A stretch of DNA of 64,000 nt from Elusimicrobiota bacterium. GTDB lineage: Bacteria; Elusimicrobiota; Elusimicrobia; Elusimicrobiales; UBA9959. The notes beneath the pieces are model-generated. The model searched no databases. It saw only the letters and a list, made by a program, of their open reading frames with translations, and was not told the origin of the DNA. Made by a program: the position numbers and the translations under genes. Below, piece after piece: positions 19,956 through 59,486 of this stretch (position 1 is its first letter; the number at the start of each line of letters is the position of its first letter). The stretch is from contig JAINCQ010000037.1 in NCBI GenBank assembly GCA_036574205.1, positions 68,669 through 132,668 of the forward strand. Direction: 5' to 3'.

Positions 19956-20632
19956 TTATCTTTTTTTCCCAACTATTAGTATAGTGGTAGTATTATCAAG
20001 CTTTGAGATTTCACTAAAAATTTCTTTGCCTTTATAGCTTTTAAGAAATTCTCCATCTGAAACATAACTTTTTATTTTATAAAATCTAAAGTCTTTCCCA
20101 TATATTTGTTTTATTCTTTTTATATGTTCTCTTTTTAAAAAATTTGGATAGAATATCAGTAAGTGATTTGATTGCGCTTTCTTAGCTAAAGCGTATATGT
20201 TTTTAGGTTCAAATATTGGGTAATATCTCTTGTGACAATCTTTAATTCCCTTAAAATCTTATCTATTAAAAAATCAAAACTTGAAACTGATGGTTCAACT
20301 ATTACGCTGGCAACTCTTGAAAATTTCCAGAATATCTTTTCAACTATGGAATTTAAAAATAGAGGATTTCCGCTTGTCAGAAAAACAATGTTTTTATATT
20401 TTTTTAAGTTTTTTTTAATTGTTAAATAAATACTTTTAATAAGAGATTTTTCATCAAACTCTTTTTTTTCGGGAAGAATGAATTTTTTGGGATTTAACCA
20501 TAAGAAATCTTTTTCTTCCGCCACATCACTTATAACAATATCAGCTTGTTTTATTATCTCTTCAGTTTTATATGAAATATTAAATGGATTTAAGCCAAAA
20601 GAGCATATAAAAAGCTTTTTTTTTACTTCCAT
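19956..20632 (-). pseudogene. Tetrapyrrole-methylase-family SAM methyltransferase, frameshifted paralog of 27512-28171
   Basis: KKLFICSFGL, TSGNPLF, PSVSSFD. An alternative frame from about 20230 continues to TAA at 19956 (IYGKDFRFY matches TYGKKYSFY of the paralog). Confidence 0.65.
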
Positions 20633-21353: not shown

Positions 21354-22565
21354 TCAATTTTTATTTAAGTCTTTATGTTCTACTATAAAACTTCCAATTA
21401 CAGAATAAAAGACAGTTGCCTTAATAAGGTCCGATATCGGCATTTGTTCATTCACGCTATGCGCGTATATTTCATTAGCAGGGCCAAATCCAACAGATGG
21501 TATTCCGAGCCGTCCAGCTGATGCTACACCATTTGTTGAGAATACCCATTTACCAACTTTAGGTTTTTTCTCAAGCGCAAAATTTGCAGCTTTTATTGCT
21601 GACTGAACAAGATGATGTTTTTCTTCTAAAACCCATGTCGGAAAATATTTCTCCTGCTTTACCTTTAATCCTTTCCAGCTTGTTGCCTCATAATTTAGTA
21701 TTTCTACCTTTGCCTTATACTTTTTTACAGAAGGTAGATTTTTTATTTGCTTTATTGCAAGATCTTTATCCTCACCTTTTGTAAGTCTTCTATCTAAATA
21801 TATTACAGCTTCATCTGGAATAGCATTTAAGGATGGAGTCTTAGATTCTTCATATGTTACAGCAATGGTTCCTTTTCCAAGAAAGTGGTCATTTTTTAAT
21901 TTTTCATTTAATTTTGTTACTTCTTGAATAATATGGCTCATTTTAAATAGAGCATTATCTCCTCTTTCTGGCGCTGAAGCATGGCAGGATTTCCCCTTTA
22001 CCGTTATTTTTATTTCCATCCTTCCCCTGTGTCCTCTATAAACCGAAAGATTTGTCGGTTCAGTTAATATTACATAATCGGGTTTTATTTTTTCTTTATT
22101 TACTATGTGAAGAATTGGAAGTCCATCACAATCTTCTTCCTGAACCGAACCTACAGCTATGTAGGTATATTTATTTGCAAGTCCAAGCTCTTTAATTATT
22201 TTTCCAGCATAAACCATTGAAACCATTGAAAGCTTTTGATCACTTGCTCCCCTTCCCCAGATTTTGTTATCTTTTATAATTCCTTCAAATGGCTTTATTT
22301 TCCACTCTTTAGGATCTCCAACGCCAACTGTGTCTATATGAGCGTCTAACATTACTTTCATTTTTCCATTTCCAATAAATCCGAGAATGTTTCCCATTTT
22401 ATCTATTTTTACTTTATCAAAACCACAGATTATCATTTCTTTTTCAATTAATCTGACAAGGTCCCCTTCTTTTGTTGAAAAACTTGGAGTTTTAATCATT
22501 TTAACAGCAAAATTAATTATGTCTTTTTTATATTTTTCAGCTAATTCTTTTACTTTTTTATCCAT
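21354..22565 (-). CDS. ygeY: YgeY-family M20 metallohydrolase
   Basis: DAHIDTV, GRGASDQ, VQEEDCDG, TEPT, GHRGRMEI, FSTNGV. Confidence 0.85.
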   Translation of the reverse strand: MDKKVKELAEKYKKDIINFAVKMIKTPSFSTKEGDLVRLIEKEMIICGFDKVKIDKMGNILGFIGNGKMKVMLDAHIDTVGVGDPKEWKIKPFEGIIKDNKIWGRGASDQKLSMVSMVYAGKIIKELGLANKYTYIAVGSVQEEDCDGLPILHIVNKEKIKPDYVILTEPTNLSVYRGHRGRMEIKITVKGKSCHASAPERGDNALFKMSHIIQEVTKLNEKLKNDHFLGKGTIAVTYEESKTPSLNAIPDEAVIYLDRRLTKGEDKDLAIKQIKNLPSVKKYKAKVEILNYEATSWKGLKVKQEKYFPTWVLEEKHHLVQSAIKAANFALEKKPKVGKWVFSTNGVASAGRLGIPSVGFGPANEIYAHSVNEQMPISDLIKATVFYSVIGSFIVEHKDLNKN

Positions 22566-22606
22566 TTGATTCCTCCATATATTCTTATGTTATTATACTA
22601 AATTTG

Positions 22607-22674
22607 TTTGATATAATTTTTATTGATGAAATCAATAAGATTTGATATAATTTTTATTGATGAGATCAATAAGG
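22607..22674 (+). repeat. Tandem 34-bp duplication containing an extended -10 box and an 8-3-8 palindrome
   Basis: TTTGATATAATTTTTATTGATGAAATCAATAAGA (22607-22640) and TTTGATATAATTTTTATTGATGAGATCAATAAGG (22641-22674); 2 mismatches. Confidence 0.9.
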
Positions 22675-25128
22675 ATAGCTTTTTTTGGAAAAGGTGGAAT
22701 AGGAAAAACGACTATAGCCGCAAATTTTTCTGCATATATTGCAAGTCTCGGCAAAAAGGTTCTTGTAGTTGGTTGTGATCCCAAAATGGATAGTACAAAG
22801 CTACTTATGGGAAAAGAATTCATATCTCCCTTTATGGAGAAAATGAATCCTCACTCTACAAAAAACGATATAATTTCTAATATATATAAATCTCCGATTA
22901 TTAAAAATCTTGATTGTATTGAGGTCGGTGGTCCAAAGCCCGGGGTAGGTTGTGCTGGTGTAGGGATAGGTATGATGATAGATATGCTTGGCAAATATAG
23001 TATAGCTGATGAATATGATTTTGTTATTTTTGATGTGCTTGGAGATATAGTATGTGGTGGTTTCGCAGGTCCTTTAAGAAGTGGGTTTGCTGATATTATG
23101 ATTATAGTAACATCTGATGAAATTTCTTCACTTTATGCTGCAAATAGACTTATCAGTATGGCTCAAAAGTATAAAGAAAATGGTATAAAAAGAGTTTGTT
23201 TGATAGCTAATTTAAAAGAGGGAGGGGATGTAAAAAAAATTACAGCTTTCTCAGAGCTTTGCAATGTTGATGTAATATCAACAATAAATTATGATATTAA
23301 AGTAAGGACACTTTCCGATAAAAATAAACTTGCGGTATTTTTCTTAAAGGAGAGCGGATTTTATCGCGAAATTAAAAGAATTTACAATGAGGTATCTAAT
23401 AGAAAAATAAAAAATATTGATTTCAAATCCCTTGATTCCTCTACTTTTACAGAACTTTCTATTAATAATTTTGAAGTTTTAAGCAATAAAGTTCATCAGT
23501 TAAAAGAAAACTTTTTTAATTATTCATCTATTGATGAGGTGGTGAAAAAAAATAAAATATCTTTTCGTGGAATTTATGCTGAAGGTCAACTATTGTTTTC
23601 ATTCAATTATGGCTTTCAAAAAATAAGCTTTATCATTATGTCCTATTCAGTTAGCAAAGGTAAATTAGATTATAAAGACTGGTTTATCTGCTTTTCCCCT
23701 GGAACACCATATAATCAACAGATAAGATTTTCAGAAAAACTTAATGAGATCAAAAAATCCTTCTCAAATTTTAAATATGAAGAAATAGAAAAACATTTTA
23801 TTGGTAACAAAATGCATTTCAGGAAAAATCTGGAAAAGGATAATATTTCAGTGAAGATTATCTCATCAAGACCGTTAACAGTCGGCGAAAAATGGCATAA
23901 GTTTATATATACTGAGGGCTTTACTAAGATATTTATTCCTCCGGGAGTAGTTATTATAGAACATGGAGATATAGAATGTAAATTTAGCGATGGCGTTGGA
24001 GGTAATCTTGGAATGTTTTGTAAAAAAGACATTCAGTTTCCTTCTATGCCAAAATGGATGGTAAGGATATTGAATGATGAGATAGATGATAACGATATTA
24101 TATATGGCGATGAAGAGAAGATTAAATCCTGTATTAAGACAGTTCCTGGGTTTAGAAAAAAAGGACTTATAGAGATATATAACTGTTGTACCCCTCTGCT
24201 AACTGCTGCGGACAAAAGTTCAATTTCAAAACTTAAATCTGTTTATATGGAAAATCTTAATAGCTTTAATGAAAATACTTCTTATGAAAAAATAGAAAAG
24301 CGTATAAAATATATGTTAGATAGGATAAAAATTATAGATAAAAAAGATAGATATGATTTTAATTTTATAAATTTTAATTTTAATGATGAAATTTCCAAAT
24401 ATCTTAAAAGTGCGAAAGTAAGATTTATCGAGACTGGAGAACATACTGATGAATTCGTTTTTTATAGCGCTATTAAAGGCTCAAAATGGCAAATATTATT
24501 TAATGATGATCTGGTTTTAAAAGGATGTTTTGAAAAAGCTGGAATTAATTATAAAATTTTTCCCCCTCCTTTCGGTTTAAAAAATAGTATTAATTTGTTA
24601 AAGAATTTAAGTTTATTATCTGATAGAAATATTATGGATTTTGTTACGGCTGAAAAAGAAATTATAAAGGAGTTGTTTAGTTTAAAAAAAGATAATAAGA
24701 ATATTAAAATAGGCATAATAATTAATGTTAATGAACTTCAAGCTTTTTTAGTAAATAAGATAGGAAAGGAAATACCAATTTTTGATTTTTTATCTGAAGC
24801 TGGTTTTGATATAAATATGTTTTTATATTTAGACCAAAGTAAATCTTCGGATATTTTAAAGTTACCTAGAAAAGAAAATCTTAAGATAATATTTTTTAAA
24901 GATCCTAAAGAACTTTCATCCGTGCTTTTGAAAAGTAAAGTTAGGCTTGTTTATTCTGATGTAAGAACGGATAGGAGACTTATAGAACTTGGTATAACTC
25001 CATTTTCGGAGGATATTTTTGAAATGGGTATTGAGGGTTTTTTTGAAACAATAAAAAGGATAAGAAGGCTTAATGAGTGGAAGTTTTATGAAAAATACGC
25101 TGGATATAAATATAAAGGAAAGAACTGA
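22657..25128 (+). CDS. NifH/BchL-like Fe protein fused to a nitrogenase component-1-like domain
   Basis: GKGGIGKTT, GCDPKMDST, EVGGPKPGVGCAG, DVLGDIVCGGFA. C-terminal half has HGDIEC, DIIYGDEEKI, YNCCTPLL, PPFG, MGIEG. Confidence 0.85.
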   Translation: MMRSIRIAFFGKGGIGKTTIAANFSAYIASLGKKVLVVGCDPKMDSTKLLMGKEFISPFMEKMNPHSTKNDIISNIYKSPIIKNLDCIEVGGPKPGVGCAGVGIGMMIDMLGKYSIADEYDFVIFDVLGDIVCGGFAGPLRSGFADIMIIVTSDEISSLYAANRLISMAQKYKENGIKRVCLIANLKEGGDVKKITAFSELCNVDVISTINYDIKVRTLSDKNKLAVFFLKESGFYREIKRIYNEVSNRKIKNIDFKSLDSSTFTELSINNFEVLSNKVHQLKENFFNYSSIDEVVKKNKISFRGIYAEGQLLFSFNYGFQKISFIIMSYSVSKGKLDYKDWFICFSPGTPYNQQIRFSEKLNEIKKSFSNFKYEEIEKHFIGNKMHFRKNLEKDNISVKIISSRPLTVGEKWHKFIYTEGFTKIFIPPGVVIIEHGDIECKFSDGVGGNLGMFCKKDIQFPSMPKWMVRILNDEIDDNDIIYGDEEKIKSCIKTVPGFRKKGLIEIYNCCTPLLTAADKSSISKLKSVYMENLNSFNENTSYEKIEKRIKYMLDRIKIIDKKDRYDFNFINFNFNDEISKYLKSAKVRFIETGEHTDEFVFYSAIKGSKWQILFNDDLVLKGCFEKAGINYKIFPPPFGLKNSINLLKNLSLLSDRNIMDFVTAEKEIIKELFSLKKDNKNIKIGIIINVNELQAFLVNKIGKEIPIFDFLSEAGFDINMFLYLDQSKSSDILKLPRKENLKIIFFKDPKELSSVLLKSKVRLVYSDVRTDRRLIELGITPFSEDIFEMGIEGFFETIKRIRRLNEWKFYEKYAGYKYKGKN

Positions 25129-26359
25129 AAACTCAAGCATGCTTCCATTTTTACTCGGAGTTATGCTTGGAATTAATTCTTTTGACGATGTTCTTTTAAT
25201 AGTTGACGGGCTTAATTGTATTATGTCAAGGGTTGAGTACATATTTGGTAATCACGATTTATATTCTACGCTTCTTTTGCCATCAGGTAAACACAGAATA
25301 ACATACACTATGAATGGTCCATTTACTACAGCAAATTCCGAAGAAAGGCTTATCTCAATTATAAAAAAAAATCTAGAAGATAGAAAATATTCTGCTATTT
25401 TTATTACGTCTTTGCCATTTCAAAAATTGATGAGACCTGATTATGAAAGAATCATAAAAAGTATAAAATCAGATATCCCTATTATATACATTGATCAGAA
25501 AAAGACTGATGATGATTGGATTGAAGGATATTCTGCATTTTTATCCTCTATTATAAGTTATATATTTTCAAAAGGAAGTAAGAAAACTAAAAGAAAAAAT
25601 ACTATTGCTATCCTTGGTAATATGTATGACAGAAATGAATATGATACAAAGGCTAATATAAGTGAGATTTGCAGATTGGTTGATATATGCGGCTATGAGC
25701 CGATTTATGTATTTCCTTCTGGCGGAAGTTTTATTGATGTATGGAAAATTATGGAAGCTGAACATATAGTTGTTCTTCCATATATTAAAGACTTGCTTCC
25801 TCAAATTAGCAAAAGCACATCTGCAAAAGTTTATGAAATGTGTTTGCCTTTAGGAATAGAAGCCTCCATAAGATGGGTTTACGAATTAAATAAAAAACAT
25901 GTTAAGTTCGCCCAAAAAATAGCCTTAGAAAGCATGGAAAGAGTAATGCCAATTATAAGTGTTATGTCTGGGAAAAATATTGTTTATTTTGGAGAACCAT
26001 ATATGCTTGATTCACTTTCTTATTTTTTTGATGATCTTAATATTTCAGTGGAATCTGCATTTTTAAATACAAACCCTAAGAAAATTGATAATATAAGAAT
26101 ATTTAAAAGACTTTTGTTTAATTATGATATAAATAAAGTAGATAGAGAGTTGGGAAAAATTATAGATGAAAAGCATATTAATCTTATTGTTGGCAATTGC
26201 TTTTCAAAGAAGCTTGTGTCTGGAAAAAATATTCCTTTCCTTGAATTTGGTTTCCCATCATATGGATTTCATTGCCTTTCTGATCAACCTTATTTTGGAT
26301 TTGAGGGTTTTGTATCATTTGCAAATAGAATTGCAAACTCCATACTTTCAACAATTTGA
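25073..26359 (+). CDS. Nitrogenase component-1-like (NifD/K, BchN/B-type oxidoreductase) subunit
   Basis: IVDGLNC, DWIEGY, PLGIEAS, EFGFPSY, PYFGFEG. The real start may be ATG 25088. Confidence 0.75.
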   Translation: MSGSFMKNTLDINIKERTENSSMLPFLLGVMLGINSFDDVLLIVDGLNCIMSRVEYIFGNHDLYSTLLLPSGKHRITYTMNGPFTTANSEERLISIIKKNLEDRKYSAIFITSLPFQKLMRPDYERIIKSIKSDIPIIYIDQKKTDDDWIEGYSAFLSSIISYIFSKGSKKTKRKNTIAILGNMYDRNEYDTKANISEICRLVDICGYEPIYVFPSGGSFIDVWKIMEAEHIVVLPYIKDLLPQISKSTSAKVYEMCLPLGIEASIRWVYELNKKHVKFAQKIALESMERVMPIISVMSGKNIVYFGEPYMLDSLSYFFDDLNISVESAFLNTNPKKIDNIRIFKRLLFNYDINKVDRELGKIIDEKHINLIVGNCFSKKLVSGKNIPFLEFGFPSYGFHCLSDQPYFGFEGFVSFANRIANSILSTI

Positions 26360-26763
26360 ATATGAAAATACTTTCCTGTATAACAGATATAGAAGAGATA
26401 AGATATCTTAAAAAAGCGGGGGCTGATGAGGTTAATATAGATGCATATGAAGAGATTTTTGAGAGCTTAAAAGTTCTTGTTAATTGTGGAATAGATTCCA
26501 TGATAGTTTCTAATATTGGTTTTGCGTCTTTTTTAAATAAGGTATTCCCTTCTTTAAATATTCATTTGAGTTCAATAAACCCTGTTTTTAACTCTGAGGC
26601 TTTTTCTTTTTTAAGATCCAGAATAAGGTTTTCAAGGCTTATACTTCCAAACCAGCTGTCTGCTAAAGAAGCCCAAGGATTGGTAAGAACCTGCAAAAGT
26701 AAAAAAGTTGAAGCTAAAATATTTTTTCAAATTTTTGGGTTGTCTATATATAATGCATTGTGA
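26356..26763 (+). pseudogene. U32-family protein remnant (paralog of 59487-60404)
   Basis: Shares AGADE, NCGID, HLSS.NPVFNS, ILPNQLSA with the intact paralog. It has an internal deletion, a frameshift at FKF.GC and a 3' truncation. Confidence 0.8.
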
Positions 26764-27510
26764 TCTGTTAGTATCGTTTAAATATATGTCAAATATTCTT
26801 GTTATATATTCTTTTAAAAAACAAGCCTGAAGATGTTCATAAAAAAATGGATATCCACCTTTTTTAAGCATTAATTCTGATGCCTTTATAAAATAAGGTA
26901 TTGTATCTGAAACTTTAACTTTAATTTCATTTTTTGATAGCTTTGCCCTACCTATATATTGAAGAAATTGAATGATTATTAATTTCAACCCTATTTTAGA
27001 AAAGAAATTTACATATCCATCTATATATTTTTAATTAAGATCATTGACAATGAATATTGAAGATAAAGGTATCTTTGCTTCTATTATGTTGTTAACTGCC
27101 TTAATCATTGTTTTATAAGAATTTTTAAAACCTGTGAGAAACTCATATTCTTTTTCCCTGTAATCAGGAATATTTAGAGCAAGGGAATCAACCTGTATTT
27201 CGGAAACTATTTTTGTAAATTTTTCATCGGAAAAGGCAAGTCCATTTGTGAATATATGAATATAATATACTAATTTTTTTGCCAATAGCAATGTTTTGAT
27301 AAAATCTTTGTGAATAGTTGGTTCTCCGTCGACAAGAGTTAGGTAATTAAATCCATTTTTTTTGCCAGAATAAAGCGTATTTGATATTGTTTTAAAATCT
27401 ATATCTATTTGATATGATTGGCTATTTCTTCTGTCTTTTGCAAAACAGTAAACGCAGCTCCTATTGCATCTATATGTCAGATAGAGTTCAATCCTTTTAA
27501 TTTCATTCAT
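26760..27510 (-). pseudogene. HxsC-type radical SAM pseudogene
   Basis: CNRSCVYC; GGEP changed to DGEP; in-frame TAA at 27031-27033 (LN*KY) between two same-frame ORFs; C-terminal Cys domain missing. Confidence 0.75.
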
Positions 27511-27511
27511 T

Positions 27512-28171
27512 TTATTTTTCAGGGATATATATTGTAAGCATTTTTTTCTCATTTATAAATTTATGAAAACAATTAATGTTTGTTTTTATTATTTCTGTTT
27601 CAAACGATATATCTTTTATATGTGTTATATAAAATGAATATTTTTTGCCATAGGTTGAATTAAAAATTTTTTTAAAAAACTTTGAGATTTTTTTATTTGA
27701 CAAATTTTCAGCGCCAAATATAAGAGTATTAATATCAGAGTTCAGATTAAAATTTATATCTTCTGGATCTTTTGGTATATTTATTATCAATAAATCATTT
27801 TTCAAAAGGTTTAATTCTAAAAAAACAGAAAAAATTCCATCTAAGGAAGAGACAGCCGGAATAAGTAATATCTCAAATCCTTTAAGTTTTGTGAATATTT
27901 CATCTGTTACACTATTAAGAAATGCTGGGTTACCATAAGTTATAAAAGAGATATTATCATAATGCGCAAATTTTTCCTTTATTATCTCTACTATTTGTGA
28001 TGGAGTGTTTTTTCTTATATTTTCAAATTTTTTAAGACCTAGTTTGAGAGCATCTTTTTTGTTAAGTGCGTCTGAAAGAACAATATCTGAGTTTTTTATT
28101 ATATGGAGTGTTTGTAATGTAATTTCTTCTGGTTTAAGTCCATATCCGCAAATAAAAAGTTTCTTTTTCAT
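27512..28171 (-). CDS. Tetrapyrrole-methylase-family SAM-dependent methyltransferase
   Basis: LFICGYGL..EEITLQT, SDIV, ITYGNPAF, IPAVSSLD. Confidence 0.75.
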   Translation of the reverse strand: MKKKLFICGYGLKPEEITLQTLHIIKNSDIVLSDALNKKDALKLGLKKFENIRKNTPSQIVEIIKEKFAHYDNISFITYGNPAFLNSVTDEIFTKLKGFEILLIPAVSSLDGIFSVFLELNLLKNDLLIINIPKDPEDINFNLNSDINTLIFGAENLSNKKISKFFKKIFNSTYGKKYSFYITHIKDISFETEIIKTNINCFHKFINEKKMLTIYIPEK

Positions 28172-30404: not shown

Positions 30405-31270
30405 ATTCCTTCACATAACGAATAAAGAGCGCATCCTATGCACCTTTTCGTTTTTGTTCTTGCTATTTTTTTTCTTGACTCTACCACATCTTCATTTATA
30501 AAATCAGGCGCCCAGTGTTTTGTAAAAAAAAGTCTTGCTTCGTTTATTTCGCTAATCTGTTCAATGTAATCTCTAAAATAACAGAGAGGCACATACCTGA
30601 GTTTCCATTGGAAAAAACCAGCGTTATTTCCGATATCAAGCGCGGCTCTCATATATGGCGCGGCTTTAGAAATCCTTGGGACCATACTAAAAAAATTTTT
30701 ATGAGCGCCTCCATACTGAGGATCAACAAAAATGTATTCCACATTTTTTATTCCTAATTTTACATGAAGTTTAGCTATATCAGGCAGTTTTTTATAATTT
30801 TGCTTTACTATTGTTGTGTTTCCATTTATATTTTGAAATCCTATTTTCCTTAAGTTATATATCCCCTCAATCATTTGCTTAAAAGAGCCTTTTGACCTTG
30901 TAAGATTATCATGGAGTCTTGAATTATGTCCGTGTATTGAAAATATTATAGAAGTAAGCCCGGCTTCTATTGCCTTTTTTGCAAAAGAGATATCTGAAAA
31001 CATCCTTCCGTTTGTCGCTATAAGTATATCTTTGATTTTGAGGTTTCTGGCTGTCTTTATTATTTTCAGAAAATCTGAGCGTATTGTTGTCTCACCGCCT
31101 ATTAACTCAAGTATATCTATTTTCTCTTTTTTTGCGGCAAGATATATCTCTTTTATAATTTCTTGAGTGTTTTTTTCTTTTATTTTCCTTTTATCACTAT
31201 TTATACAAAACACACAATTATTATTACATCTATAGCCTGTAAGTATAACTATTTTCTTTTTTTTATTCAT
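30350..31270 (-). CDS. Radical SAM protein (HxsC-type)
   Basis: CNNNCVFC, GGET, TNGR, VPLCY, CIGC-x5-CEG. Confidence 0.87.
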   Translation of the reverse strand: MNKKKKIVILTGYRCNNNCVFCINSDKRKIKEKNTQEIIKEIYLAAKKEKIDILELIGGETTIRSDFLKIIKTARNLKIKDILIATNGRMFSDISFAKKAIEAGLTSIIFSIHGHNSRLHDNLTRSKGSFKQMIEGIYNLRKIGFQNINGNTTIVKQNYKKLPDIAKLHVKLGIKNVEYIFVDPQYGGAHKNFFSMVPRISKAAPYMRAALDIGNNAGFFQWKLRYVPLCYFRDYIEQISEINEARLFFTKHWAPDFINEDVVESRKKIARTKTKRCIGCALYSLCEGIWKEYIKHYGDKELMKVK

Positions 31271-32472
31271 TTTAATAAAGATACAAGATTTATATTAAAT
31301 ATTATTTCAAAAAGGCATCCTAAAAAAATACCTTCAGCAAATGGTCTTGCTTTTACAAATTTAAGCTTTATGTTCTTATCAGGGTGGTTTTCCATCCATT
31401 TTTTTAATGCATCAACCTGTTCTTCATTTAGACCATCTTTGAACATATCATCAAAAAGTCCTTTAAAAACTTCATTTGTCCTGAGTATCTCAAGTTCATT
31501 TGAGGATAGTACCATTCCAGGTTTTATATCACTAGCTGTAACATAATATGTATTATGAGTTTCTATTATTTGCTCAAATATTATTTTTCCTAAGAAAAAA
31601 ATACTTCCAAATTTAAAGGTATTTTTTATCGCAGTTAACAAGATGTCATAAATAAATTGAAGTGGATTTGAAACTACAAAAACAGCTAAAATCATAATTG
31701 CATACATCAATATCATTATATATTTCCACAGTCTTGTTCTTAAAAACTGGGAAATTTTTGGCCATAAGAAAAACATCAGGAAAAAAAATATATCGGTTCT
31801 GTGAAAAATGTTGAAAACATATCTTCCCAGAATAAGATTAAACATTTGTTTATATGCAAATATTGATAAAATGCCAAAGATAGAAAAAAGAGCTGAAGGA
31901 GAATTCCATTTTATTTTTTTTATTTTGTTAAGATAAAATTCTTTTATTTCCTTAAAAGCATTATTATCTCCAGCTTTTAAAAGTGCTATATTGTCTTTCA
32001 GATAATAAAATACAGAGAAAAATGCTGAAAATACAAATATGTTTATAAGGGTTGTTATCCATATATAGTTTGGAAATCCTTTCAGGTCATATCTTATTAG
32101 GGGAAGAAATAAAATATTAGCTATAAAAAATTTAGAATCTCCTGCTGGCCATATCTCTCCATACCATAAAACTAATGAAAATATAATAGAATAGAATATG
32201 TGAATCATATATTGCTTGTAAAAAATGAAGTTTAAGTAATTTGAGCTCTTTCCATAATATCCCACTACAGTGTTTATAAGGTTAGCAAAAATAAGTATTC
32301 CTGTTATTTTAAACGCAAGAAGTATTTTTGAATTTTTTATTTTGCCGGTCTCTCTATCTTCTTTTATAACAGAGACACCCCATAGAAGATATGCCGCAAG
32401 GGAAATATAGGAAATCAAATTAAGGATATTATTTGAGTATTGGTTTAAGTTCATAATCTCCATATAACTCAT
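31267..32472 (-). CDS. A24-family (prepilin/preflagellin peptidase-like) membrane aspartic peptidase
   Basis: Multi-TM; first Asp motif EDRETGKIKN, second WPAGDSK (GxGD-type); FlaK-like C-terminal insert (IKPGMVL) and PFA...FLG end. Confidence 0.65.
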   Translation of the reverse strand: MSYMEIMNLNQYSNNILNLISYISLAAYLLWGVSVIKEDRETGKIKNSKILLAFKITGILIFANLINTVVGYYGKSSNYLNFIFYKQYMIHIFYSIIFSLVLWYGEIWPAGDSKFFIANILFLPLIRYDLKGFPNYIWITTLINIFVFSAFFSVFYYLKDNIALLKAGDNNAFKEIKEFYLNKIKKIKWNSPSALFSIFGILSIFAYKQMFNLILGRYVFNIFHRTDIFFFLMFFLWPKISQFLRTRLWKYIMILMYAIMILAVFVVSNPLQFIYDILLTAIKNTFKFGSIFFLGKIIFEQIIETHNTYYVTASDIKPGMVLSSNELEILRTNEVFKGLFDDMFKDGLNEEQVDALKKWMENHPDKNIKLKFVKARPFAEGIFLGCLFEIIFNINLVSLLK

Positions 32473-33319
32473 AATATCTTTTCATCAGCCCCAGGCATTT
32501 TCTTTTTATCTTGCATTTATAGCACTTTGAAGTATATATTCTTTCTTCTTTTGGTAAAGTTATCCATGCGTATTTCCTTAAGTTTTCTGAAAGAACGCAA
32601 AGTGGAAAATGATATAATCTGATAAAACCATCTAAAAACATATCTTCTATTTCAGAAATTTTTTTTGCGCTATCTGACAGACTCAAAAATAATTTATTTT
32701 TATTTATTTCAGCTATACCCTCTATTTCGTAGTGTATTATAGTAATATAAAAATCACAGGCAATAAGTATGTTTTTTATAAATGTTATAGTTTGCGGAAG
32801 ATCATCTATATTTAATCTGTGTATAACAACCCTTATTTCTATGGTACCTGAAAAATATTTTGCAAGATTTACTATCCCTGAAAGAGTTTGTTTATATGAA
32901 CCTTTTACTTTAGATATCCTTTCAAAGTTTTTTTCATTACAGGTATAAAAACTTATGGCCGTTGTAAATGGATTTTTAGCAAGTGATGCAAACCTTTTTG
33001 TAAATTCTACATTAGAAAATTTTCTTCCATTTGTAAGAAGGGTTATCGGGATATCAGGGAGTTTTTCCCTCAAATAAACAAGAAATTTGAAAAAATCAGG
33101 ATGAAGAGTCGGCTCTCCACCAGTTATGTTTATATAGTTTTTTTTATTATGATTTGAAAAGTAAACTTTTTCCCCTTTTTCAATATATAGTTTTAGTTTC
33201 TTTACCTGAGTTTTGAGATCATAATTGCCACTAGGTGTTGAGGTAGAATACTCTTTGGGATTTGTGCACATTATGCATTTGTTGTTGCATTTATTCCAGA
33301 GAGATATATCAGGCATCAA
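32429..33319 (-). CDS. His-Xaa-Ser system radical SAM maturase, HxsC-like
   Basis: CNNKCIMC, ITGGEPTL, LLTNGR, IEIRVVIH, LYHFPLCVL, CYKC-x5-CLG. Confidence 0.85.
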   Translation of the reverse strand: MMPDISLWNKCNNKCIMCTNPKEYSTSTPSGNYDLKTQVKKLKLYIEKGEKVYFSNHNKKNYINITGGEPTLHPDFFKFLVYLREKLPDIPITLLTNGRKFSNVEFTKRFASLAKNPFTTAISFYTCNEKNFERISKVKGSYKQTLSGIVNLAKYFSGTIEIRVVIHRLNIDDLPQTITFIKNILIACDFYITIIHYEIEGIAEINKNKLFLSLSDSAKKISEIEDMFLDGFIRLYHFPLCVLSENLRKYAWITLPKEERIYTSKCYKCKIKRKCLGLMKRYYELYGDYELKPILK

Positions 33320-34685
33320 ACCACCTTAAAAATATTTTATAATTTTCCTTTTTTGATAGTTTTTTTATTAAGATTTTAAATATTCCTTTTTCAATCTCAC
33401 ACCAGTATTGTGATTTATATGAGCCGTATGGAGTTTTTGAGGTTTCATAATTAAATACTGGACATATCCCGCAGTATGGTTTGAAAGCGCATCTAAAACA
33501 TTTTGGCTGATTCTCAAGACAGGAAGCCATAGCGCATACCCTGGCTGGACCTGAATTTATTATCTCATAATAGCTTGAATTAAAAACATTTCCAATCCTA
33601 AATGAGAAATCTCCATATGCTCCAAGCATCCTTCCTTCATCGCATGTATATATATCACCATCATAATTGTAAGCAATCTGTCCTATAGCTCCTCCGCATG
33701 GGCTTCTTAGATCAAGATAATTCGGGTCTTCATTAAATATAATTTTTTTGAGTTTTATAGCGGCATTTCTTTCTATAAACTTTTCGCTATAATTTATTTT
33801 AATTATATAATCAAGCGATTTTTCATAAAAATCCAAAAAATCTTTTGCGTTATAGCCTATTTCACTCCATTTGTATTTAGCATATCCTATTGGAGAAAGT
33901 GGCCTTATAAATATTCCACCAATTCCTAAGTTAAGATATTCTTCTATTATAGCTTGGGGGTTTGAAAGCGAAAATTTAGTTGTTGTCATAAGCGCTTGTG
34001 GAAGAGAATCTTTTTCTCCTTTTGAACGGCTATCTACAAGTTTTTTTATTTTTTTTAGCCAGTATATAGTTTTCTGATAAGAGGATCCTCCGTTATAAGG
34101 CCTGTTTGCATTGTGGATTTTTTCTGGACCGTCAAGGGATGTGCATATTGATACATTGTTTAACAATAAAAATTTTAATTTATCATCATCCATTAAACTA
34201 AGGTTGGTTACTATACTTAGTTTGATATCCTTATCACTTTTTTTGCTTTTTATATAATCTATGGACATTTTAAAGGTTTTCCAGTTTAAAAGAGGCTCTC
34301 CTCCTTGAAATTCTATAGCAATGTTTTGTGATGGAGTATTTAAGATGAAATCTATTGTTTTTCTAGCAGTTTCCTCAGACATTTCGCTTGATGCTCCAAA
34401 ATTTTGCGTTCTACAATATTTACACAGATGATTGCATCTTAAGGTAATTACCATAATATGCAAAGATGGAGAAGAAAAGACATATGAGGTAAGGTTTTTA
34501 TATTTTTTAATTAGTTCATTTTGAATTTTAAGGTTTTCTTTTTTTTTCTTTTTTTTATTAAGTAATTTCTCAAATTCATTTTTTTTAACAATGGAACATT
34601 CCCCAAAGTCATTTGAGATAAAATAGCCATCTTCAAGTTTTTCAAAGTAAAAGCCACAAATATCTTTAAAATTTTTTACTATCAT
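33309..34685 (-). CDS. hxsB: His-Xaa-Ser system radical SAM maturase HxsB (paralog 2)
   Basis: SLHIMVITLRCNHLCKYC, IEFQGGEPL, TSLDGP, FIRPLSPIG, DLRSPCG, YTCDEGRM, SPASM cysteines. Confidence 0.85.
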   Translation of the reverse strand: MIVKNFKDICGFYFEKLEDGYFISNDFGECSIVKKNEFEKLLNKKKKKKENLKIQNELIKKYKNLTSYVFSSPSLHIMVITLRCNHLCKYCRTQNFGASSEMSEETARKTIDFILNTPSQNIAIEFQGGEPLLNWKTFKMSIDYIKSKKSDKDIKLSIVTNLSLMDDDKLKFLLLNNVSICTSLDGPEKIHNANRPYNGGSSYQKTIYWLKKIKKLVDSRSKGEKDSLPQALMTTTKFSLSNPQAIIEEYLNLGIGGIFIRPLSPIGYAKYKWSEIGYNAKDFLDFYEKSLDYIIKINYSEKFIERNAAIKLKKIIFNEDPNYLDLRSPCGGAIGQIAYNYDGDIYTCDEGRMLGAYGDFSFRIGNVFNSSYYEIINSGPARVCAMASCLENQPKCFRCAFKPYCGICPVFNYETSKTPYGSYKSQYWCEIEKGIFKILIKKLSKKENYKIFLRWFDA

Positions 34686-37979: not shown

Positions 37980-39626
37980 TTATATTTTATATATTTTATC
38001 TACATCAATTATTACCTTCTCTCCATTTTTGAAAAAATCCATACATCCTTCAACAGCCACAATAGTTGGGATTTTCAGCTCTCTTGCTATAATAAGCGCA
38101 TGACTTGTAAAGACACCATTTTCAAGTATAAGCCCTTTTGCTTTTAAAAGTAGTTTGATATTTTTACCAAGGTTTTTAGCACATATTATCTCTCCTTTAA
38201 TGTCATTTTCAATATCTGTGTCGTTTATCAAAAAAATCTTTCCCTTTACTTTGCCGGGATATATGGTAATTCCTTTCAAAAAATTTTTGCTAAGATTTTT
38301 TCCTCTCATATATGTCTTTAAATTTTTTTTTCTTAACGATGATATCATCTTTTTTTTCAAGTCTTCATATTCTTTGATTAATTGGCTTATCTCAAGCGAA
38401 AAAGAATTGTATAACCTGTGGTTTTTATTGCCAAGATATTTAAAGAGAGTAGAATATATTTTTGTTTCAAATTTTTTTTCTCCTCTTATTTTACCTATTG
38501 CAAGTGTTGTAGTTGCCTCAAAAGGTTGCCTTATTCTATTTAAAAGGTCCATAACACAGTCATAGAAAGCGAACTTTGTGTTTATTGGTTCTATATCTTT
38601 TTTTTCTATATTATTAACTTTAAAATATTTCCTAATGTTTTTTTTGACATTTTCTATTATTCCTTTCCCCTCTTTAATTTTTCTTAATATTTCTTTATTA
38701 AGATTGTATATGTTTTTGAGTATAAATACTTCAGAGTTCTTTGATATAAAAGAAGTTTTTAGACCAAGAGATAAAAGCTCTTTGTTGATAAATTTAACTA
38801 TTTTAAAGTTGTTAGTAGCATTATATGGCGAGTAGAGAGTCTTTAAGTTTACATTTAATGGTAAGAAATCTATAGAAAAGTTTGGCGGCAAACTTCGGTA
38901 CTGAACTAATTTGAATTTCAGGTTAATGTCTATAAGAAATTCTATATCAGTTTTATTAAATGTTTTTCCACAGTTTTTTAGTTTATTGAATATCTGGCTG
39001 AAGAAAAGATAAAGAAAATAAAATTCATCAGTATTTTCTATTATCAGATCTTTTTTTACTGCAATAGTATATGGTTTTTTTATTCTTCCTTGCTCTATTG
39101 CGTCATGTCTCCCACCATCTGAATATTCTATATAAAATGATGGTTTTTCTATATCTTCCATAAAAATTACGCCGCTTACTATTGGTTTTATAAATTTTTG
39201 GATTATTATTGACATTGGTTGAATACCTAAAGTATAAGGAATAAGGTCTTTTTTATACTGACTTAACAGAACTTTTCTAATATCGTTAAAAATATTTTTT
39301 CTGTCTGAGATAATGGATTTAAAAAGTCCAGCATAAGATTTATTTTTTGAATCTTCTATTTCAACTGATGATCTTATTATAAATCTATCATAAAATATAT
39401 TAAGTTTAATTAGATTTTTAATTATATCTTTCATTACCGAAGAAGGTATTTTAGAATGTTTTATTTTTTCTATTATTAAGTCAAAGGAATCTTTTGACGT
39501 AACTCCAAAAGATTTGGATATAAAATCGGAGCCGATTATCAAAAAATCAGGGGTAAGTGACAAAGAATCAAGCTTTAAAAGATTTTTAGCTTTATTACCA
39601 GTTTCTTTTCCTATTATTATATGCAT
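37980..39626 (-). CDS. PEP-utilising enzyme: PPDK/PEP-synthase-type ATP-binding domain plus C-terminal phospho-His swivel domain
   Basis: IRSS..EDS..SYAGLF, IIQKFI...SGV, DIEF, VQYR; TSHALIIARELKIP His motif. Confidence 0.8.
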   Translation of the reverse strand: MHIIIGKETGNKAKNLLKLDSLSLTPDFLIIGSDFISKSFGVTSKDSFDLIIEKIKHSKIPSSVMKDIIKNLIKLNIFYDRFIIRSSVEIEDSKNKSYAGLFKSIISDRKNIFNDIRKVLLSQYKKDLIPYTLGIQPMSIIIQKFIKPIVSGVIFMEDIEKPSFYIEYSDGGRHDAIEQGRIKKPYTIAVKKDLIIENTDEFYFLYLFFSQIFNKLKNCGKTFNKTDIEFLIDINLKFKLVQYRSLPPNFSIDFLPLNVNLKTLYSPYNATNNFKIVKFINKELLSLGLKTSFISKNSEVFILKNIYNLNKEILRKIKEGKGIIENVKKNIRKYFKVNNIEKKDIEPINTKFAFYDCVMDLLNRIRQPFEATTTLAIGKIRGEKKFETKIYSTLFKYLGNKNHRLYNSFSLEISQLIKEYEDLKKKMISSLRKKNLKTYMRGKNLSKNFLKGITIYPGKVKGKIFLINDTDIENDIKGEIICAKNLGKNIKLLLKAKGLILENGVFTSHALIIARELKIPTIVAVEGCMDFFKNGEKVIIDVDKIYKI

Positions 39627-40330
39627 CAGACAAACCTGTATTTTTTAATTTTTAATAAAATGGAGGTTGTTCTTTGAAACCCATCAACTATCTCGCTGGA
39701 TTTTATCAAAAGTCTTTTTTTCATAATTGGACTTTCAGTTACAAGGGTTTGAAAGTCGTTTGCAGTTATGGTATTTCCTTTCCTTTTTTCATCTTTTAAA
39801 TATCTTATAAATCCTTCATCAATAACTTTGCCAAGCCAGTTATAGGATACATTTTTTTCTACAGCTGTTATAATATAGCGTATCCCCTTTGAAAGGGTTT
39901 TTTCTATAATATCAAACATATCATTTCCTTTTACTACTGAAATATATTTTATTCCCATTTTTCTTATACCCGAAATTATGTTATTGGTTATTTTTCTATC
40001 TTGTTTAGTTAAATCATAATCCATGCTGGATATAAAAATAGTTTTTTCTTCATGCCCGATGATTTTTACCGATTTTCTGATTGCGTCCAGAAAAGGTATT
40101 TCCATTTTATTATATTTATATTCATAACACCTAATTCCCATAAGATTTGCTTGCTTTTTTATTATATCTGATTTAGGAAACTCATTAAATATTTCATGAT
40201 GCAATTTACCAGCGTTAAATGTAAAGAGAAGTTTTAGATTGTATCCAAGTTCAATAGCCTTTATTATAGCAAAGTGAGAATCTTTTCCTCCACTATAGTT
40301 TGTAAAAGCAATTTTACTTTTCTCAGTCAT
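39626..40330 (-). CDS. Diphthine-ammonia ligase (Dph6)-like PP-loop ATPase
   Basis: YSGGKDSH, QANLMGI, WLGKVID, DFQTLVTESP (compare EFETLVxDxP). Confidence 0.7.
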   Translation of the reverse strand: MTEKSKIAFTNYSGGKDSHFAIIKAIELGYNLKLLFTFNAGKLHHEIFNEFPKSDIIKKQANLMGIRCYEYKYNKMEIPFLDAIRKSVKIIGHEEKTIFISSMDYDLTKQDRKITNNIISGIRKMGIKYISVVKGNDMFDIIEKTLSKGIRYIITAVEKNVSYNWLGKVIDEGFIRYLKDEKRKGNTITANDFQTLVTESPIMKKRLLIKSSEIVDGFQRTTSILLKIKKYRFV

Positions 40331-42293
40331 AGCATATATATAAGTTTATCTCTCCTATTAGGTTAAAAGAATTTATTTTTTTGAAACGTTTTTTTATTAA
40401 AGCAAAATCTTCATTATTTAAGGAATCAATTATATTTATTGAATTGACCTTGCTTAGTAATTCTTTTTTAATATCGTCACCAAACCATGAAAAGACATTC
40501 CATATTACTGTAACTTTTTTAAAAAAGTTTTTTGGTATAAAGTCAGTTATTGAGAAGATAGGGATTGAAAAATCCATGCGACTTTTATCACAGTATTTGT
40601 CTGTAATATTTATCCCATTTTTAAAATCTTTTCCAAAAAAATCAAGCCATTTTATATGAAAAGAATTTTTTATGTCTATAAATTCTGATGATATTTCAAC
40701 TAAGCTGTTGAAATTATATTGTATAAAAAGCCGTTTCTTTGATATAGTTAAAAAATTTGAAATATCAAATAAGATATATCTATCTTTTATTGAGGTGCTT
40801 TTCTTTATTTCGTTGGATATGAATTTTAAGACCTCACTGTATAAAGTAAGTCTTAAAGCATAGTTTTCAGGATTTATGAGATAACCAAACTTATTTTTAG
40901 TAAGGATAGATTCAATTTTATTTTTGTCAAAGTTTACATTTTTAAGGTAGGTAGAAAATTTTTTATAGGTTGTAAGATATGGATTTTGATGTTTTATTAT
41001 AGAAGAGCATTTTAAAAGTAAAGTATGAAAAAATCTGTCCATTTCACAGAGCTTTGCTATTGGCTTTATTTCGGAAAGTATTTCCTCTGTTTTTTTTATT
41101 TCATTCGCTGTATAAGTTTTAGTTGATAAAACTTTATAGGGATATTTTTTTGAATATTTTATACTTAATTTTTTTGAGTTTATTTCAAAAAATGTGTTTT
41201 TCCATATCATAAGACGAAAAAAATCTAACTTTGCACCAGATGATAACGCATAATCTATTGTTTTTTTGAAATTTTTTAAATTATCACCCGGAAGTCCATA
41301 AATAAATGATAATGTAAAAGGATATGAGTATTCAAGCATCTTTGGAGAGTATTTAAGAAAATGATCCTTTAGTTCTTTTATATCAAATATCCTATTTGCT
41401 TGTTTTAGAGCTTTTTTTGTCAGAGTTTGAACTCCAAATCCAAAAGTTATTCTTGGATCTAATATATATTTAAGTATATCTGGATTAAACTTATTTATCT
41501 CGCTATTAAAATTAAAAAAAACATTTCTTTTAATAGTTTTTATATATTCAAATATTTTTTTTGCTTTTTGAATGTCAAGAAATATATCGCTGTCGCAAAA
41601 TTCTATGCTTTTTACTTTGGGGTTTTGTGAGAGTATAAAAGCTACTTCTAATTTTAGCCTTTTAAAGTCAAATCCCCTGTATTTTATTATCCTGTTGGTT
41701 ACAGCACAATATCCACAGTTGTATAAACATCCTCTTGAGCCTTCTATGTAAAACTCGGAGTAATTTTTTACATCAAATATTTTGTTAAGATATGGAGAAG
41801 GTATCTTATTAAGGTCTTTAATAGGAGGTCTTGGAGGATTTATTTTGTACTTTTTACCATTTCTATAGATAAGCCCTTTAATTTTTTCAAACATCAAGTC
41901 CTTTCTGATAATAGAATAAACAAGTTCAAAAAATGTCTCTTCTCCTTCACCATAGACTATAAAATCTACTGGATAAAAATTAATTTTATCATAAAAGGAA
42001 GTATTTATTGCTGGTCCTACTAAAACTATATTAACTCTTTTAATTTTCTTCTTTATTTTTTTAGAGAGATTTATAAATATCTGTGGGTCATTATAGCAAG
42101 AAAATCCTATTAAGTTGGGTTGCCCTTTATCATAAAATTTTTTATCAATAGTACTTTCAAAATCTTCTACAGATTTAATAATGACATTTATGCCTTTTTT
42201 TAAGTTTTTTAAAAGGAAAGCCTTAAGATACCCAAGCTCAAGGGGAGGATGTTCAGTTTTCTCTGCTATAAGGTATATGTTATATGAATTCAT
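40323..42293 (-). CDS. Cobalamin-binding radical SAM protein (class B methyltransferase-like)
   Basis: PPLELGYL, GFSCY, GEGEETF, PSPY, EGSRGCLYNCGYC, GVQT, IYGLPGD. Confidence 0.85.
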   Translation of the reverse strand: MNSYNIYLIAEKTEHPPLELGYLKAFLLKNLKKGINVIIKSVEDFESTIDKKFYDKGQPNLIGFSCYNDPQIFINLSKKIKKKIKRVNIVLVGPAINTSFYDKINFYPVDFIVYGEGEETFFELVYSIIRKDLMFEKIKGLIYRNGKKYKINPPRPPIKDLNKIPSPYLNKIFDVKNYSEFYIEGSRGCLYNCGYCAVTNRIIKYRGFDFKRLKLEVAFILSQNPKVKSIEFCDSDIFLDIQKAKKIFEYIKTIKRNVFFNFNSEINKFNPDILKYILDPRITFGFGVQTLTKKALKQANRIFDIKELKDHFLKYSPKMLEYSYPFTLSFIYGLPGDNLKNFKKTIDYALSSGAKLDFFRLMIWKNTFFEINSKKLSIKYSKKYPYKVLSTKTYTANEIKKTEEILSEIKPIAKLCEMDRFFHTLLLKCSSIIKHQNPYLTTYKKFSTYLKNVNFDKNKIESILTKNKFGYLINPENYALRLTLYSEVLKFISNEIKKSTSIKDRYILFDISNFLTISKKRLFIQYNFNSLVEISSEFIDIKNSFHIKWLDFFGKDFKNGINITDKYCDKSRMDFSIPIFSITDFIPKNFFKKVTVIWNVFSWFGDDIKKELLSKVNSINIIDSLNNEDFALIKKRFKKINSFNLIGEINLYICYD

Positions 42294-44428: not shown

Positions 44429-44740
44429 TCAGCACCATCCTCCCCTTGAATGAGAGCCATGAGAACCGTGCGAACCATGCGAACCATGCGAACCATGCGA
44501 ACCATGCGAACCATGTGAACCATGTGAGGAGTGTGAACCATGAGAAGTGTGACTTGTATGACTTGTTCCATCAAAATAGTTTGTATGAACATATTGTGCG
44601 GATGCTTCTTGTGGAAGAGATGTTCCAATTATCCCAAGGGCTATTGCGGTTTTGACTATATCACTATCTAAAATTTTACCTTCTTCACTATTTAGATAAG
44701 TTTTTATTTGTTTTTTTATGGTCTTTTTATTATTCTTCAT
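44429..44740 (-). CDS. hxsA: His-Xaa-Ser repeat peptide (HxsA-type RiPP precursor)
   Basis: Leader followed by 12 tandem HxS triplets, then HSRGGWC; ATG 44740 follows a GGAGGGG RBS; surrounded by hxsB/C/D homologs. Confidence 0.9.
   Translation of the reverse strand: MKNNKKTIKKQIKTYLNSEEGKILDSDIVKTAIALGIIGTSLPQEASAQYVHTNYFDGTSHTSHTSHGSHSSHGSHGSHGSHGSHGSHGSHGSHGSHSRGGWC
44453..44560 (-). repeat. 12 x 9-bp coding tandem repeat (HxS codons)
   Basis: Five identical CGAACCATG units at 44471-44515, flanked by synonymous or variant units. Confidence 0.95.
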
Positions 44741-59483: not shown

Positions 59484-59486
59484 GTT

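Follow-up and report, generated by a model that had tools for sequence, protein, structure and literature searches.

The window analysed in this work is a stretch of 64,000 nucleotides from contig JAINCQ010000037.1 of an Elusimicrobiota bacterium (assembly GCA_036574205.1). The subject of the analysis is a pair of nitrogenase-like genes found in it, here called nflHD and nflK, which lie next to a cluster for the maturation of a peptide made of tandem His-Xaa-Ser (H-x-S) units (HxS peptide). A sequence-only reading of this DNA had proposed that the pair encodes an ATP-driven reductase, acting on the modified peptide or supplying low-potential electrons to radical-SAM (S-adenosylmethionine) enzymes. 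The two genes and the domains of the first one are the following.

22657 to 25128, plus strand: nflHD, an nflH::nflD fusion gene of 823 amino acids when read from the TTG at 22657 (Pfam, translation, alignment and tree)
22672 to 23457, plus strand: NifH-like ATPase/[4Fe-4S] domain of nflHD, residues 6-267 (Pfam Fer4_NifH, E 3.8e-60)
23458 to 23943, plus strand: extra linker domain of nflHD, residues 268-429 (structure model)
23944 to 25128, plus strand: NifD-like domain of nflHD, residues 430-823 (Pfam Oxidored_nitro over residues 430-770)
25073 to 26359, plus strand: nflK, a K-like second component-1 subunit of 428 amino acids (Pfam Oxidored_nitro, E 3.6e-36)

The fusion of NifH and NifD-like parts is genuine and conserved. 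Both Pfam domains are found in a single 823-amino-acid open reading frame (ORF), with the Oxidored_nitro match of the NflD part (E 4.6e-9) at 36.1 bits over a cut-off of 28.6. A protein database search with the fusion returned 61 matches, about 40 of them full-length homologs of 805-873 amino acids, and the named ones belong to metagenome-assembled genomes (MAGs) of Elusimicrobia. Because the database copy has 822 amino acids, the ATG at 22660 is the likelier start. A TTGATG-17-TATAAT site lies directly before the start codon, and a scan of positions 22300-27300 for promoters and terminators gave counts that were not above those of shuffled sequences (35 versus 29.5 and 2 versus 1.5, respectively).

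All the motifs that had been read in the NifH part are present in the translation, namely the P-loop FFGKGGIGKTT, GVGCAGVGIG with the first cluster Cys and the change of R to V, and DIVCGGF with the second cluster Cys. The same holds for HGDIEC, DIIYGD and NCC in the C-terminal half of the fusion, and for DGLNC in the second component-1 subunit (ORF 25073-26359). When 31 fusions were aligned, the invariant residues of NflH were the P-loop GKGGIGKT, the switch residues, C99 and C133 (31/31), and those of NflD were D438, C441, C511, YSD766-768, D772 and R774, with no invariant His in this part. In the K-like subunit, C49 (within DGLNC) is the sole invariant Cys, found in 63/63 rows, and the NflK of the window lacks the Cys that some homologs have at positions 70 and 117. 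Both ORFs of the window are full-length and keep every one of the family-invariant residues.

NflD and the K-like subunit are true paralogs (hhalign probability 97.4% over 355 columns). C441 of NflD aligns with C49 of NflK, and the position aligned with C511 is occupied by Cys in 36 of the 63 K-like rows, though not in the NflK of the window. Compared with the PDB, the K-like profile matched NifK (2.3e-24), NifE (8e-21) and BchB (3e-18), as well as NifN, within a range from 2e-24 to 1e-17; the NflD domain alone gave no match at E ≤ 1. The linker between the H and D parts (around 160 residues) was modelled from residues 262-436 and a 10-row alignment as a small alpha/beta domain, with predicted local distance difference test (pLDDT) values of 80-91 in the core and 65.5 for the whole model. 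A Foldseek comparison of this model with the PDB returned nothing at E ≤ 0.001, and in a wider structure search the best match was of KA1 type, with a Z score of 5.3, and none of the matches listed was PqqD-like. A clear structural relative of the linker was thus not found. In another group of Elusimicrobiota fusions (663-797 amino acids) the linker is shorter, at about 90-130 residues.

Relation to Group VI nitrogenase paralogs

The position of the NifH domain was studied in an unrooted tree of 89 rows (IQ-TREE quick, LG+C20), with supports from the Shimodaira-Hasegawa-like approximate likelihood ratio test (SH-aLRT). The references were labelled according to NCBIfam cut-offs (11 NifH, 3 CfbC, BchL, ChlL and a BchX-like row), and 12 Elusimicrobiota rows shorter than 235 amino acids were left out. 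The domain of the window belongs to a clade that consists of 26 fusions from Elusimicrobiota (99% SH-aLRT). Elusimicrobia GWF2_62_30 carries two fusions beside a U32 gene (30% identity over residues 7-814, E 9e-120), and both copies are in this clade, where they were recognised by linker peptides identical to those of the GWF2_62_30 contig. The clade is nested in a group of 52 rows (94%), which also contains the remaining Elusimicrobiota copies and one sequence from Myxococcales. The larger group stands apart from NifH (96%), CfbC, BchL/ChlL, BchX and the NifH::NifD fusions of methanogens and Clostridia. The unnamed Group IV-like NifH rows are on the other side of the tree, which has no labelled rows for methylthio-alkane reductase (Mar, Group IV-C) or isethionate reductase (Isr, Group IV-F).

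The scores of the NCBIfam models point in the same direction. The NifH domain reached 189.7 bits with NifH (TIGR01287, cut-off 394) and also 189.7 with CfbC (NF033200, cut-off 402), 160.9 with BchL (cut-off 345) and 148.1 with BchX (cut-off 331), all of them below half of the cut-offs; BchN gave 36.6 against 420 and BchB 30.4 against 490. The genome, which is 95% complete, yielded neither nifB nor any Oxidored_nitro gene beyond nflHD and nflK, so that the absence of nifB, nifE and nifN noticed in the window extends to the genome. Together, the tree, in which the domain was placed inside no characterised Nif, Cfb or Bch clade, and the low model scores support the earlier view of a putative nitrogenase-like, ATP-dependent reductase outside these families.

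The family itself was already known. Meheust et al. (2020; bioRxiv 10.1101/765248, published in ISME J 14:2907) described "Group VI" nitrogenase paralogs in Elusimicrobia of lineages IV and V, in two Gracilibacteria and in fourteen Myxococcales. GWF2_62_30 is among the Group VI genomes that they name. According to the same text, up to 13 radical-SAM genes adjoin the Group VI genes, and the reduction of a tetrapyrrole towards a new cofactor was predicted. In section 7 of a review in Chem Rev from 2026 (PMC13474568), the tetrapyrrole view is kept, Group VI is placed under "unknown cofactor synthesis", and a simple [4Fe-4S] cluster is proposed for it. The statement in the sequence-only reading that no such case had been described has therefore to be corrected, since the family and its radical-SAM neighbourhood are reported in both publications.

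The protein of the window shows the traits of Group VI: a Walker A/GXGXXG motif, two bridging Cys (compare Cys97 and Cys132 of NifH), few Cys of P-cluster type in the D and K parts, no FeMo-co ligands and no accompanying NifB, NifE or NifN. Judged from its sequence, it is a Group VI member in fused form, of a family that is named but uncharacterised. It has in common with the published Group VI (Meheust et al. 2020; PMC13474568) the NifH clade, the P-loop with two bridging Cys, the lack of NifB and the many radical-SAM neighbours, B12-binding ones included. It differs in that H and D form one polypeptide, which includes an additional domain of around 160 amino acids; on such a fusion the main texts, as far as they were accessible, are silent. 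A further difference is that its neighbourhood is read here as one for HxS peptide maturation, whereas those texts, to the same extent, predict a tetrapyrrole and do not mention HxS.

With DPOR (BchL/BchN/BchB) and COR (BchXYZ), which form Group V, the pair shares an ATP-driven NifH-like donor and a D/K-like catalytic pair. It lies, however, in a separate clade, its scores are far under the cut-offs, and neither HemB nor HemC was found in the genome. CfbC, from the Ni-sirohydrochlorin a,c-diamide reductive cyclase CfbCD of coenzyme F430 synthesis, is the joint best NCBIfam match of the NifH domain, but the labelled CfbC rows are in a separate clade, and the window is that of a bacterium with a D and K pair instead of a D homomer. 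The NifH::NifD-like fusions of methanogens (Methanomassiliicoccales and Methanosarcina among them), Thermoplasmata and Clostridia (L006, L007, L018, L029, L033 and L039; 706-797 amino acids) have the same domain order. By contrast, they form a clade of their own nearer to Group IV, CfbC and NifH, and their similarity to the query is confined to its NifH part (25-35% coverage). A different arrangement was seen in a Myxococcota MAG (L010, 2627-5884), where one frame holds two NifH domains followed by a NifD-like one (1085 amino acids by ORF call); its NifH domains group with the methanogen and Clostridia fusions and not with Group VI.

The Hxs cluster and its recurrence beside nitrogenase-like genes

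The rest of the locus is made up mainly of genes related to peptide maturation, as follows.

27031 to 47504, minus strand: expanded Hxs maturation cluster of about 20 kb with 13 radical-SAM ORFs (Pfam/NCBIfam)
44429 to 44752, minus strand: HxsA4-type precursor, 107 amino acids (NCBIfam NF038313, 77.4 bits, cut-off 55)
46014 to 47504, minus strand: HxsB radical SAM/SPASM maturase (TIGR03978, cut-off 370)
33309 to 34685: second HxsB (TIGR03978, cut-off 370)
47452 to 47898: HxsD-like gene (TIGR03976, 41 bits, cut-off 50)
31267 to 32472, minus strand: A24 (prepilin-peptidase)-like membrane protein, candidate leader peptidase (no Pfam match; ESM Atlas)
40323 to 42293: B12-binding radical-SAM gene (Pfam/NCBIfam)
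39626 to 40330, minus strand: Dph6-like ATP pyrophosphatase (TIGR03679, 65.8 bits, below the cut-off; PDB 3rjz, 1.7e-8)
27512 to 28171 and 20186 to 20632, minus strand: two TP_methylase-fold genes (weak matches)
26632 to 27552, minus strand: last gene of the Hxs cluster, a radical SAM split into ORFs of 173 and 118 amino acids (one ORF of 339 amino acids in its same-genus counterpart)
26356 to 26763, plus strand: truncated U32-family gene of 135 amino acids whose start overlaps the stop of nflK (Pfam Peptidase_U32, E 3.6e-14)
21354 to 22565, minus strand: YgeY-family M20 hydrolase, the divergent neighbour of nflHD (NCBIfam NF009555, 537 bits, cut-off 321)
57731 to 61195, plus strand: module of two radical-SAM genes, a UbiU-like U32 gene and an ORF of unknown function (homology maps)

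The precursor has the conserved leader SEEGKILDSDIVK and 12 H-x-S units in tandem, and it ends in SRGGWC. The radical-SAM ORFs of the cluster are of HxsB, HxsC/HxsC4-like, PapB-like and B12-dependent types (15 Radical_SAM ORFs were found in the whole window). They are accompanied by the Dph6-like ATP pyrophosphatase, a PEP-utilising enzyme, a TP_methylase-fold protein and the A24-like peptidase, the latter with ESM Atlas feature scores of 0.95 and 0.94 to PF01478 clusters and a structural TM score of 0.71. The two HxsB score 510 and 461 bits, over the cut-off, and the curated cut-offs of HxsC and HxsD were missed (HxsC best 169 against 267.9, HxsC4 146 against 500, HxsD 41 against 50). By these scores, the HxsC-like and HxsD-like genes of the window are diverged relatives.

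In the canonical antiphage system HxsABCD, cytoplasmic maturation precedes export, and an HxsB/C-dependent change of +8 Da was read by the authors as +C/-4H on an SHRSS motif, according to Li et al. (Nat Commun 2026, PMC13128918). What the window has in common with the system as described there is an HxS-repeat protein, an HxsB above the cut-off and HxsC-like and HxsD-like genes. As for the differences, four genes and one +8 Da change are reported there, against 13 radical-SAM genes on one strand here, and the window adds the short HxsA4-type precursor, the A24-like peptidase, the U32 proteins and the nitrogenase-like module. The word nitrogenase is absent from that paper (PMC13128918), and a full-text literature search found no article connecting nitrogenase-like enzymes with HxS peptides or other ribosomally synthesised and post-translationally modified peptides (RiPPs), a point on which the supplements of Meheust et al. 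(2020) may bear.

The relation between both types of genes was studied in a sample of 401 Elusimicrobiota genomes, which were searched with the D domain as query and with a degenerate nucleotide pattern representing five H-x-S units. The D domain was found in 36/401 genomes, counting that of the window, distributed as 15/46 in family f1, 18/48 in f8, 2/10 in f6 and none in other families. The HxS pattern was detected in 89/401 (42/46 in f1, 33/48 in f8, 8/10 in f6 and just 5 elsewhere), and a reversed-pattern control gave almost no matches. The repeat was present in 35 of the 36 carriers of the D domain and in 54 of the 365 non-carriers. The Elusimicrobiota precursors share the leader SEEGK-I/M-LDSD-I/V-VKT and an aromatic or Cys C-terminus.

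For the neighbourhoods, 41 proteins of the window were mapped by tblastn (E ≤ 1e-8, at which diverged neighbours can be missed) onto up to 20 kb on each side of the best nif-like locus of the 35 other carriers. An HxS gene lies within 20 kb of the NifD/K-like genes in 11/36 genomes and within 30 kb in 12/36, the closest at about 1-5 kb; by a rough estimate, chance alone would bring the two to less than 20 kb from each other in some 1-3% of cases if genomes have 2-4 Mb. Homologs of the radical-SAM genes lie within 3 kb of the D/K genes in 27/36 genomes, the A24-like peptidase within 10 kb in 13/36 and U32 within 5 kb in 6/36. HxsC-like radical-SAM genes and an A24-like peptidase are the habitual neighbours. 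In several genomes (G266, G188, G054 and others) the nif-like genes are on the same strand as, and located between, hxsA, hxsB-like and HxsC-like genes. A massive expansion at one locus was observed in family f8 genomes (G291:C30, G214:C16, G295:C3 and G236:C107), with 9 to 11 tblastn segments similar to NifH/D/K interleaved with HxsC4-like radical-SAM genes within 24-40 kb.

In metagenomes, a scan with 8 closer K-like rows retrieved 78 loci, 32 of them of at least 12 kb; in an earlier contig scan with full-length alignment, based on peptide patterns of NifH, most loci were ordinary NifH and about 8 of 80 were relevant. Many metagenome loci show the order radical SAM, A24-like, radical SAM, NifH, NifD and NifK, or a trio of radical SAM, U32 and unknown protein. 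This trio corresponds to the last three genes of the module at 57731-61195 (radical SAM, UbiU-like U32 and an unknown 264-amino-acid protein), which are directly beside nif-like genes in ten genomes and loci (G086, G114, G178, G387, G316, L224, L227, L235, L240 and L242), usually in divergent or convergent orientation to the Group VI genes. The last ORF (orf60401) has no BLASTP similarity to the U32 gene that precedes it. The M20 hydrolase also has homologs near nif-like genes (G212, G114, G178, L223, L227, L228 and L233).

The linkage was found again outside the phylum. In a Myxococcales MAG (L057), genes for NifH, NifD-like and NifK-like proteins are followed on the same strand, 0.4 kb away, by a repeat peptide with 16 SHG units and by radical-SAM genes. 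Its GTDB class, with 18 Myxococcota-like genomes, has a K-like gene in 14 and the HxS pattern in 12, in such a way that all 12 HxS genomes carry the K-like gene and HxS appears in 12/14 carriers versus 0/4 non-carriers. Both genes are on the same contig in 7/12 genomes, at distances of 0.4, 0.4, 19.6, 21, 25.6, 36 and 38 kb. All 4 of the non-Elusimicrobiota carriers tested have HxS genes. The association with Hxs and radical-SAM genes noticed in the window is consequently no accident of this DNA, as it recurs in Elusimicrobiota and in Myxococcota-like genomes. The precursors of the latter (L301-L304; L057:14555-14698) have RR-containing, signal-like leaders (RRDLVAKSG or RRGFLGTS, for instance) and an aromatic or Cys C-terminus, and this type of leader hints at a Tat-type export after cytoplasmic modification.

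At the junction of the window, the nif-like operon abuts the Hxs cluster, as had been noticed, at 268 bp from the 3' end of the cluster but in convergent orientation. The operon runs into the U32 paralog, which is a fragment of 135 amino acids here. Intact copies are longer, with 305 amino acids for the one beside radical-SAM genes at 59487-60404 of the window and 311 for that of G060, a genome of the same genus. A UGA read-through behind the fragment was considered and rejected by inspection, as reading the TGA adds just six codons before a TAA. Another short ORF near the junction, the TP_methylase one at 20186-20632 (minus strand, 148 amino acids versus 219 for its paralog), was counted as a sign of decay. 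The Hxs cluster is syntenic in two genomes of the same genus (G060 and G286), with 63-74% blastn identity from position 26782 of the window onward, beginning just past the U32 fragment. One of these genomes has the intact U32 (311 amino acids) and partner genes in the slot, together with an unbroken last radical-SAM gene (339 amino acids).

Candidate role of NflHDK and alternatives

The mechanism of DPOR, COR and CfbCD is established and serves as a template for NflHDK. Our proposal is that Group VI NflHDK reduces the HxS repeat peptide (HxsA4), and not a tetrapyrrole, as an optional tailoring step, a proposal to which we give an even chance. By analogy with the template, two HD fusion chains would dimerise by way of their NifH domains, with C99 and C133 as ligands of a [4Fe-4S] cluster that bridges them. 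Hydrolysis of MgATP would drive low-potential electrons to a second [4Fe-4S] cluster at the D/K interface, bound by C441 and C511 of D, C49 of K and one non-Cys ligand, and from there onto a substrate bound between D and K in an (HD)2K2 enzyme. DPOR holds a [4Fe-4S] cluster at its subunit interface with three Cys and one other ligand, and the same set of ligands makes a simple [4Fe-4S] cluster probable here.

The substrate would be HxsA4 once the radical-SAM enzymes of the cluster have cross-linked or oxidised it, and the reaction would add 2H, or multiples of it, to a heterocycle derived from His, at a C=C or C=N bond. The canonical +8 Da HXS product, being oxidised and cross-linked, is of the kind on which a reductase could act. 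UbiU-like U32 proteins are O2-independent hydroxylases; their adjacency makes deoxygenation a possible alternative reaction, and the recurrent trio suggests that such a hydroxylase works together with the nif-like reductase. The step would be optional, in that some Hxs clusters have NflHDK and others lack it. As G060 and G286 hold the Hxs cluster with no match to the D domain, the cluster appears to work without nif-like genes, and the operon can be seen as an accessory at a rearranging cluster end, a position more in keeping with an enzyme for optional tailoring than with a source of electrons that the cluster could not do without.

That the substrate is a peptide is suggested by the neighbours of the nif-like genes, which include HxsA4, HxsB, the A24-like peptidase and the YgeY M20 hydrolase, and the recurrence of the pairing in two phyla also points to a peptide instead of a tetrapyrrole. 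On these genomic grounds a peptide-linked function appears to be the better-supported hypothesis, although unproven.

Several observations weigh against it. The Group VI enzymes are biochemically uncharacterised according to section 7 of PMC13474568, and the structure search recognised no peptide-binding domain resembling a RiPP recognition element (RRE) in the linker. Within families f1, f6 and f8, the HxS repeat is found in 35/36 carriers and also in 49/69 non-carriers, so the co-occurrence discriminates weakly inside these families, where HxS is common without nif-like genes; kinship also means that the genomes do not count as independent cases. In 25/36 carriers the 20 kb around the nif-like genes showed no HxS gene, and the mapped stretch of 7/36 contains no radical-SAM homolog. 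Of the 32 metagenome loci with a length of 12 kb or more, just 3 have an HxS gene at up to 10 kb on either side, one of them being the GWF2 contig again. In the window, the convergent orientation and the 18 kb to hxsA exclude co-transcription of the nif-like and Hxs operons, and genes at the junction are decayed (the U32 fragment and the split radical-SAM gene). Finally, G060 and G286 gave no match to the D-domain query.

Among the alternatives, a dedicated supply of low-potential electrons, in which ATP hydrolysis would serve to re-reduce the [4Fe-4S] clusters of the 15 radical-SAM enzymes, was among the proposals of the sequence-only reading and agrees with radical-SAM genes being the most constant neighbours (27/36 within 3 kb). 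We regard it as unlikely, because simple donation would not call for a conserved D/K catalytic component that has cluster ligands of its own, and sister genomes have the same radical-SAM set without nif-like genes. We know of no precedent for a nitrogenase-like supply of electrons to radical-SAM enzymes.

The reduction of a C=C bond in a scavenged or locally made tetrapyrrole, or in a novel cofactor, as in DPOR, COR and CfbCD, is the role predicted by Meheust et al. (2020), according to whom the family branches beside Groups IV and V with their tetrapyrrole-acting characterised members. The B12-binding radical-SAM gene and two TP_methylase-fold genes of the window would agree with this role, as would the best PDB match of one of the TP_methylase-fold proteins, a cobalt-precorrin-4 methylase, although a weak one (E 0.015). 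However, HemB (PF00490) and HemC (PF01379) were not found in the 95%-complete genome by searches that were positive in 11/14 control genomes, and CbiE-type NCBIfam models gave about 23 bits against corrin-methylase cut-offs of 93 and more. Three TP_methylase matches exist in the genome, with two weak ones in the window (41.7 and 29.6 bits), and homologs were found in just 2/43 other contigs, whereas the recurrent neighbours are the repeat peptide, its maturases and peptidases. The NCBIfam matches of the B12-radical-SAM protein also include RiPP methyltransferase models. B12-radical-SAM enzymes commonly act as peptide C-methyltransferases too, and a scavenged corrinoid for such an enzyme is possible. 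A tetrapyrrole as the substrate of NflHDK is, on balance, improbable.

A NifEN-like scaffold or maturase, in which D/K would assemble a metal cluster or insert it, for example, onto the His-rich repeat peptide, could explain that the K-like profile matches NifE and NifN nearly as well as NifK, and the HxS repeats may be metal ligands. Such a function is very unlikely, given that no NifB was found in the 95%-complete genome and that NflD lacks an invariant His or further invariant Cys for a complex cofactor. Least credible of all is a decaying remnant, acquired or rearranged at the cluster end and out of use in this genome: the broken flanks (U32 of 135 versus 311 amino acids, radical SAM of 173 and 118 versus 339), the lack of detectable nif-like genes in the two same-genus genomes and the accessory position at a rearranging end leave room for it, but both nif-like ORFs are intact with all their invariant residues.

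Peptide reduction by NflHDK would matter because Group VI is the one major branch of the nitrogenase superfamily that has no assigned reaction. What is new here is its tie to HxS repeat peptides, the family having been described before. This tie is reproducible and leads to a defined, expressible peptide with its maturases and peptidases, which opens the question to co-expression and mass spectrometry. Group VI might then provide the first case in the superfamily of enzymes whose substrate is a peptide or protein of ribosomal origin, reducing with ATP-driven electrons of very low potential a radical-SAM-forged His-derived heterocycle in HxS repeats, a claim that we hold with a little less than even confidence. 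If true, peptide natural products or defence effectors would join N2, tetrapyrroles and C-S compounds as targets of nitrogenase-type ATP-driven reduction, and the abundance of radical-SAM genes in such clusters would be accounted for. As canonical HXS is an antiphage effector, a nitrogenase relative may have been recruited into a defence or secreted-peptide pathway.

Two further observations concern other genes of the window. Diphthamide is a modified His that is made with Dph5, of TP_methylase fold, and Dph6; with Dph6-like and TP_methylase-fold genes beside a His-rich peptide, a diphthamide-like His chemistry is conceivable. The TP_methylase-fold protein could be assigned neither to the corrin methylases nor to the Dph5 type by NCBIfam and PDB profile comparison. 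Upstream of the HxsD, HxsB and HxsA genes lies a diverged homolog of McsB, the protein arginine kinase (48731-49684, minus strand; ATP-gua_Ptrans, 84 bits against a cut-off of 385), which is also found in G060.

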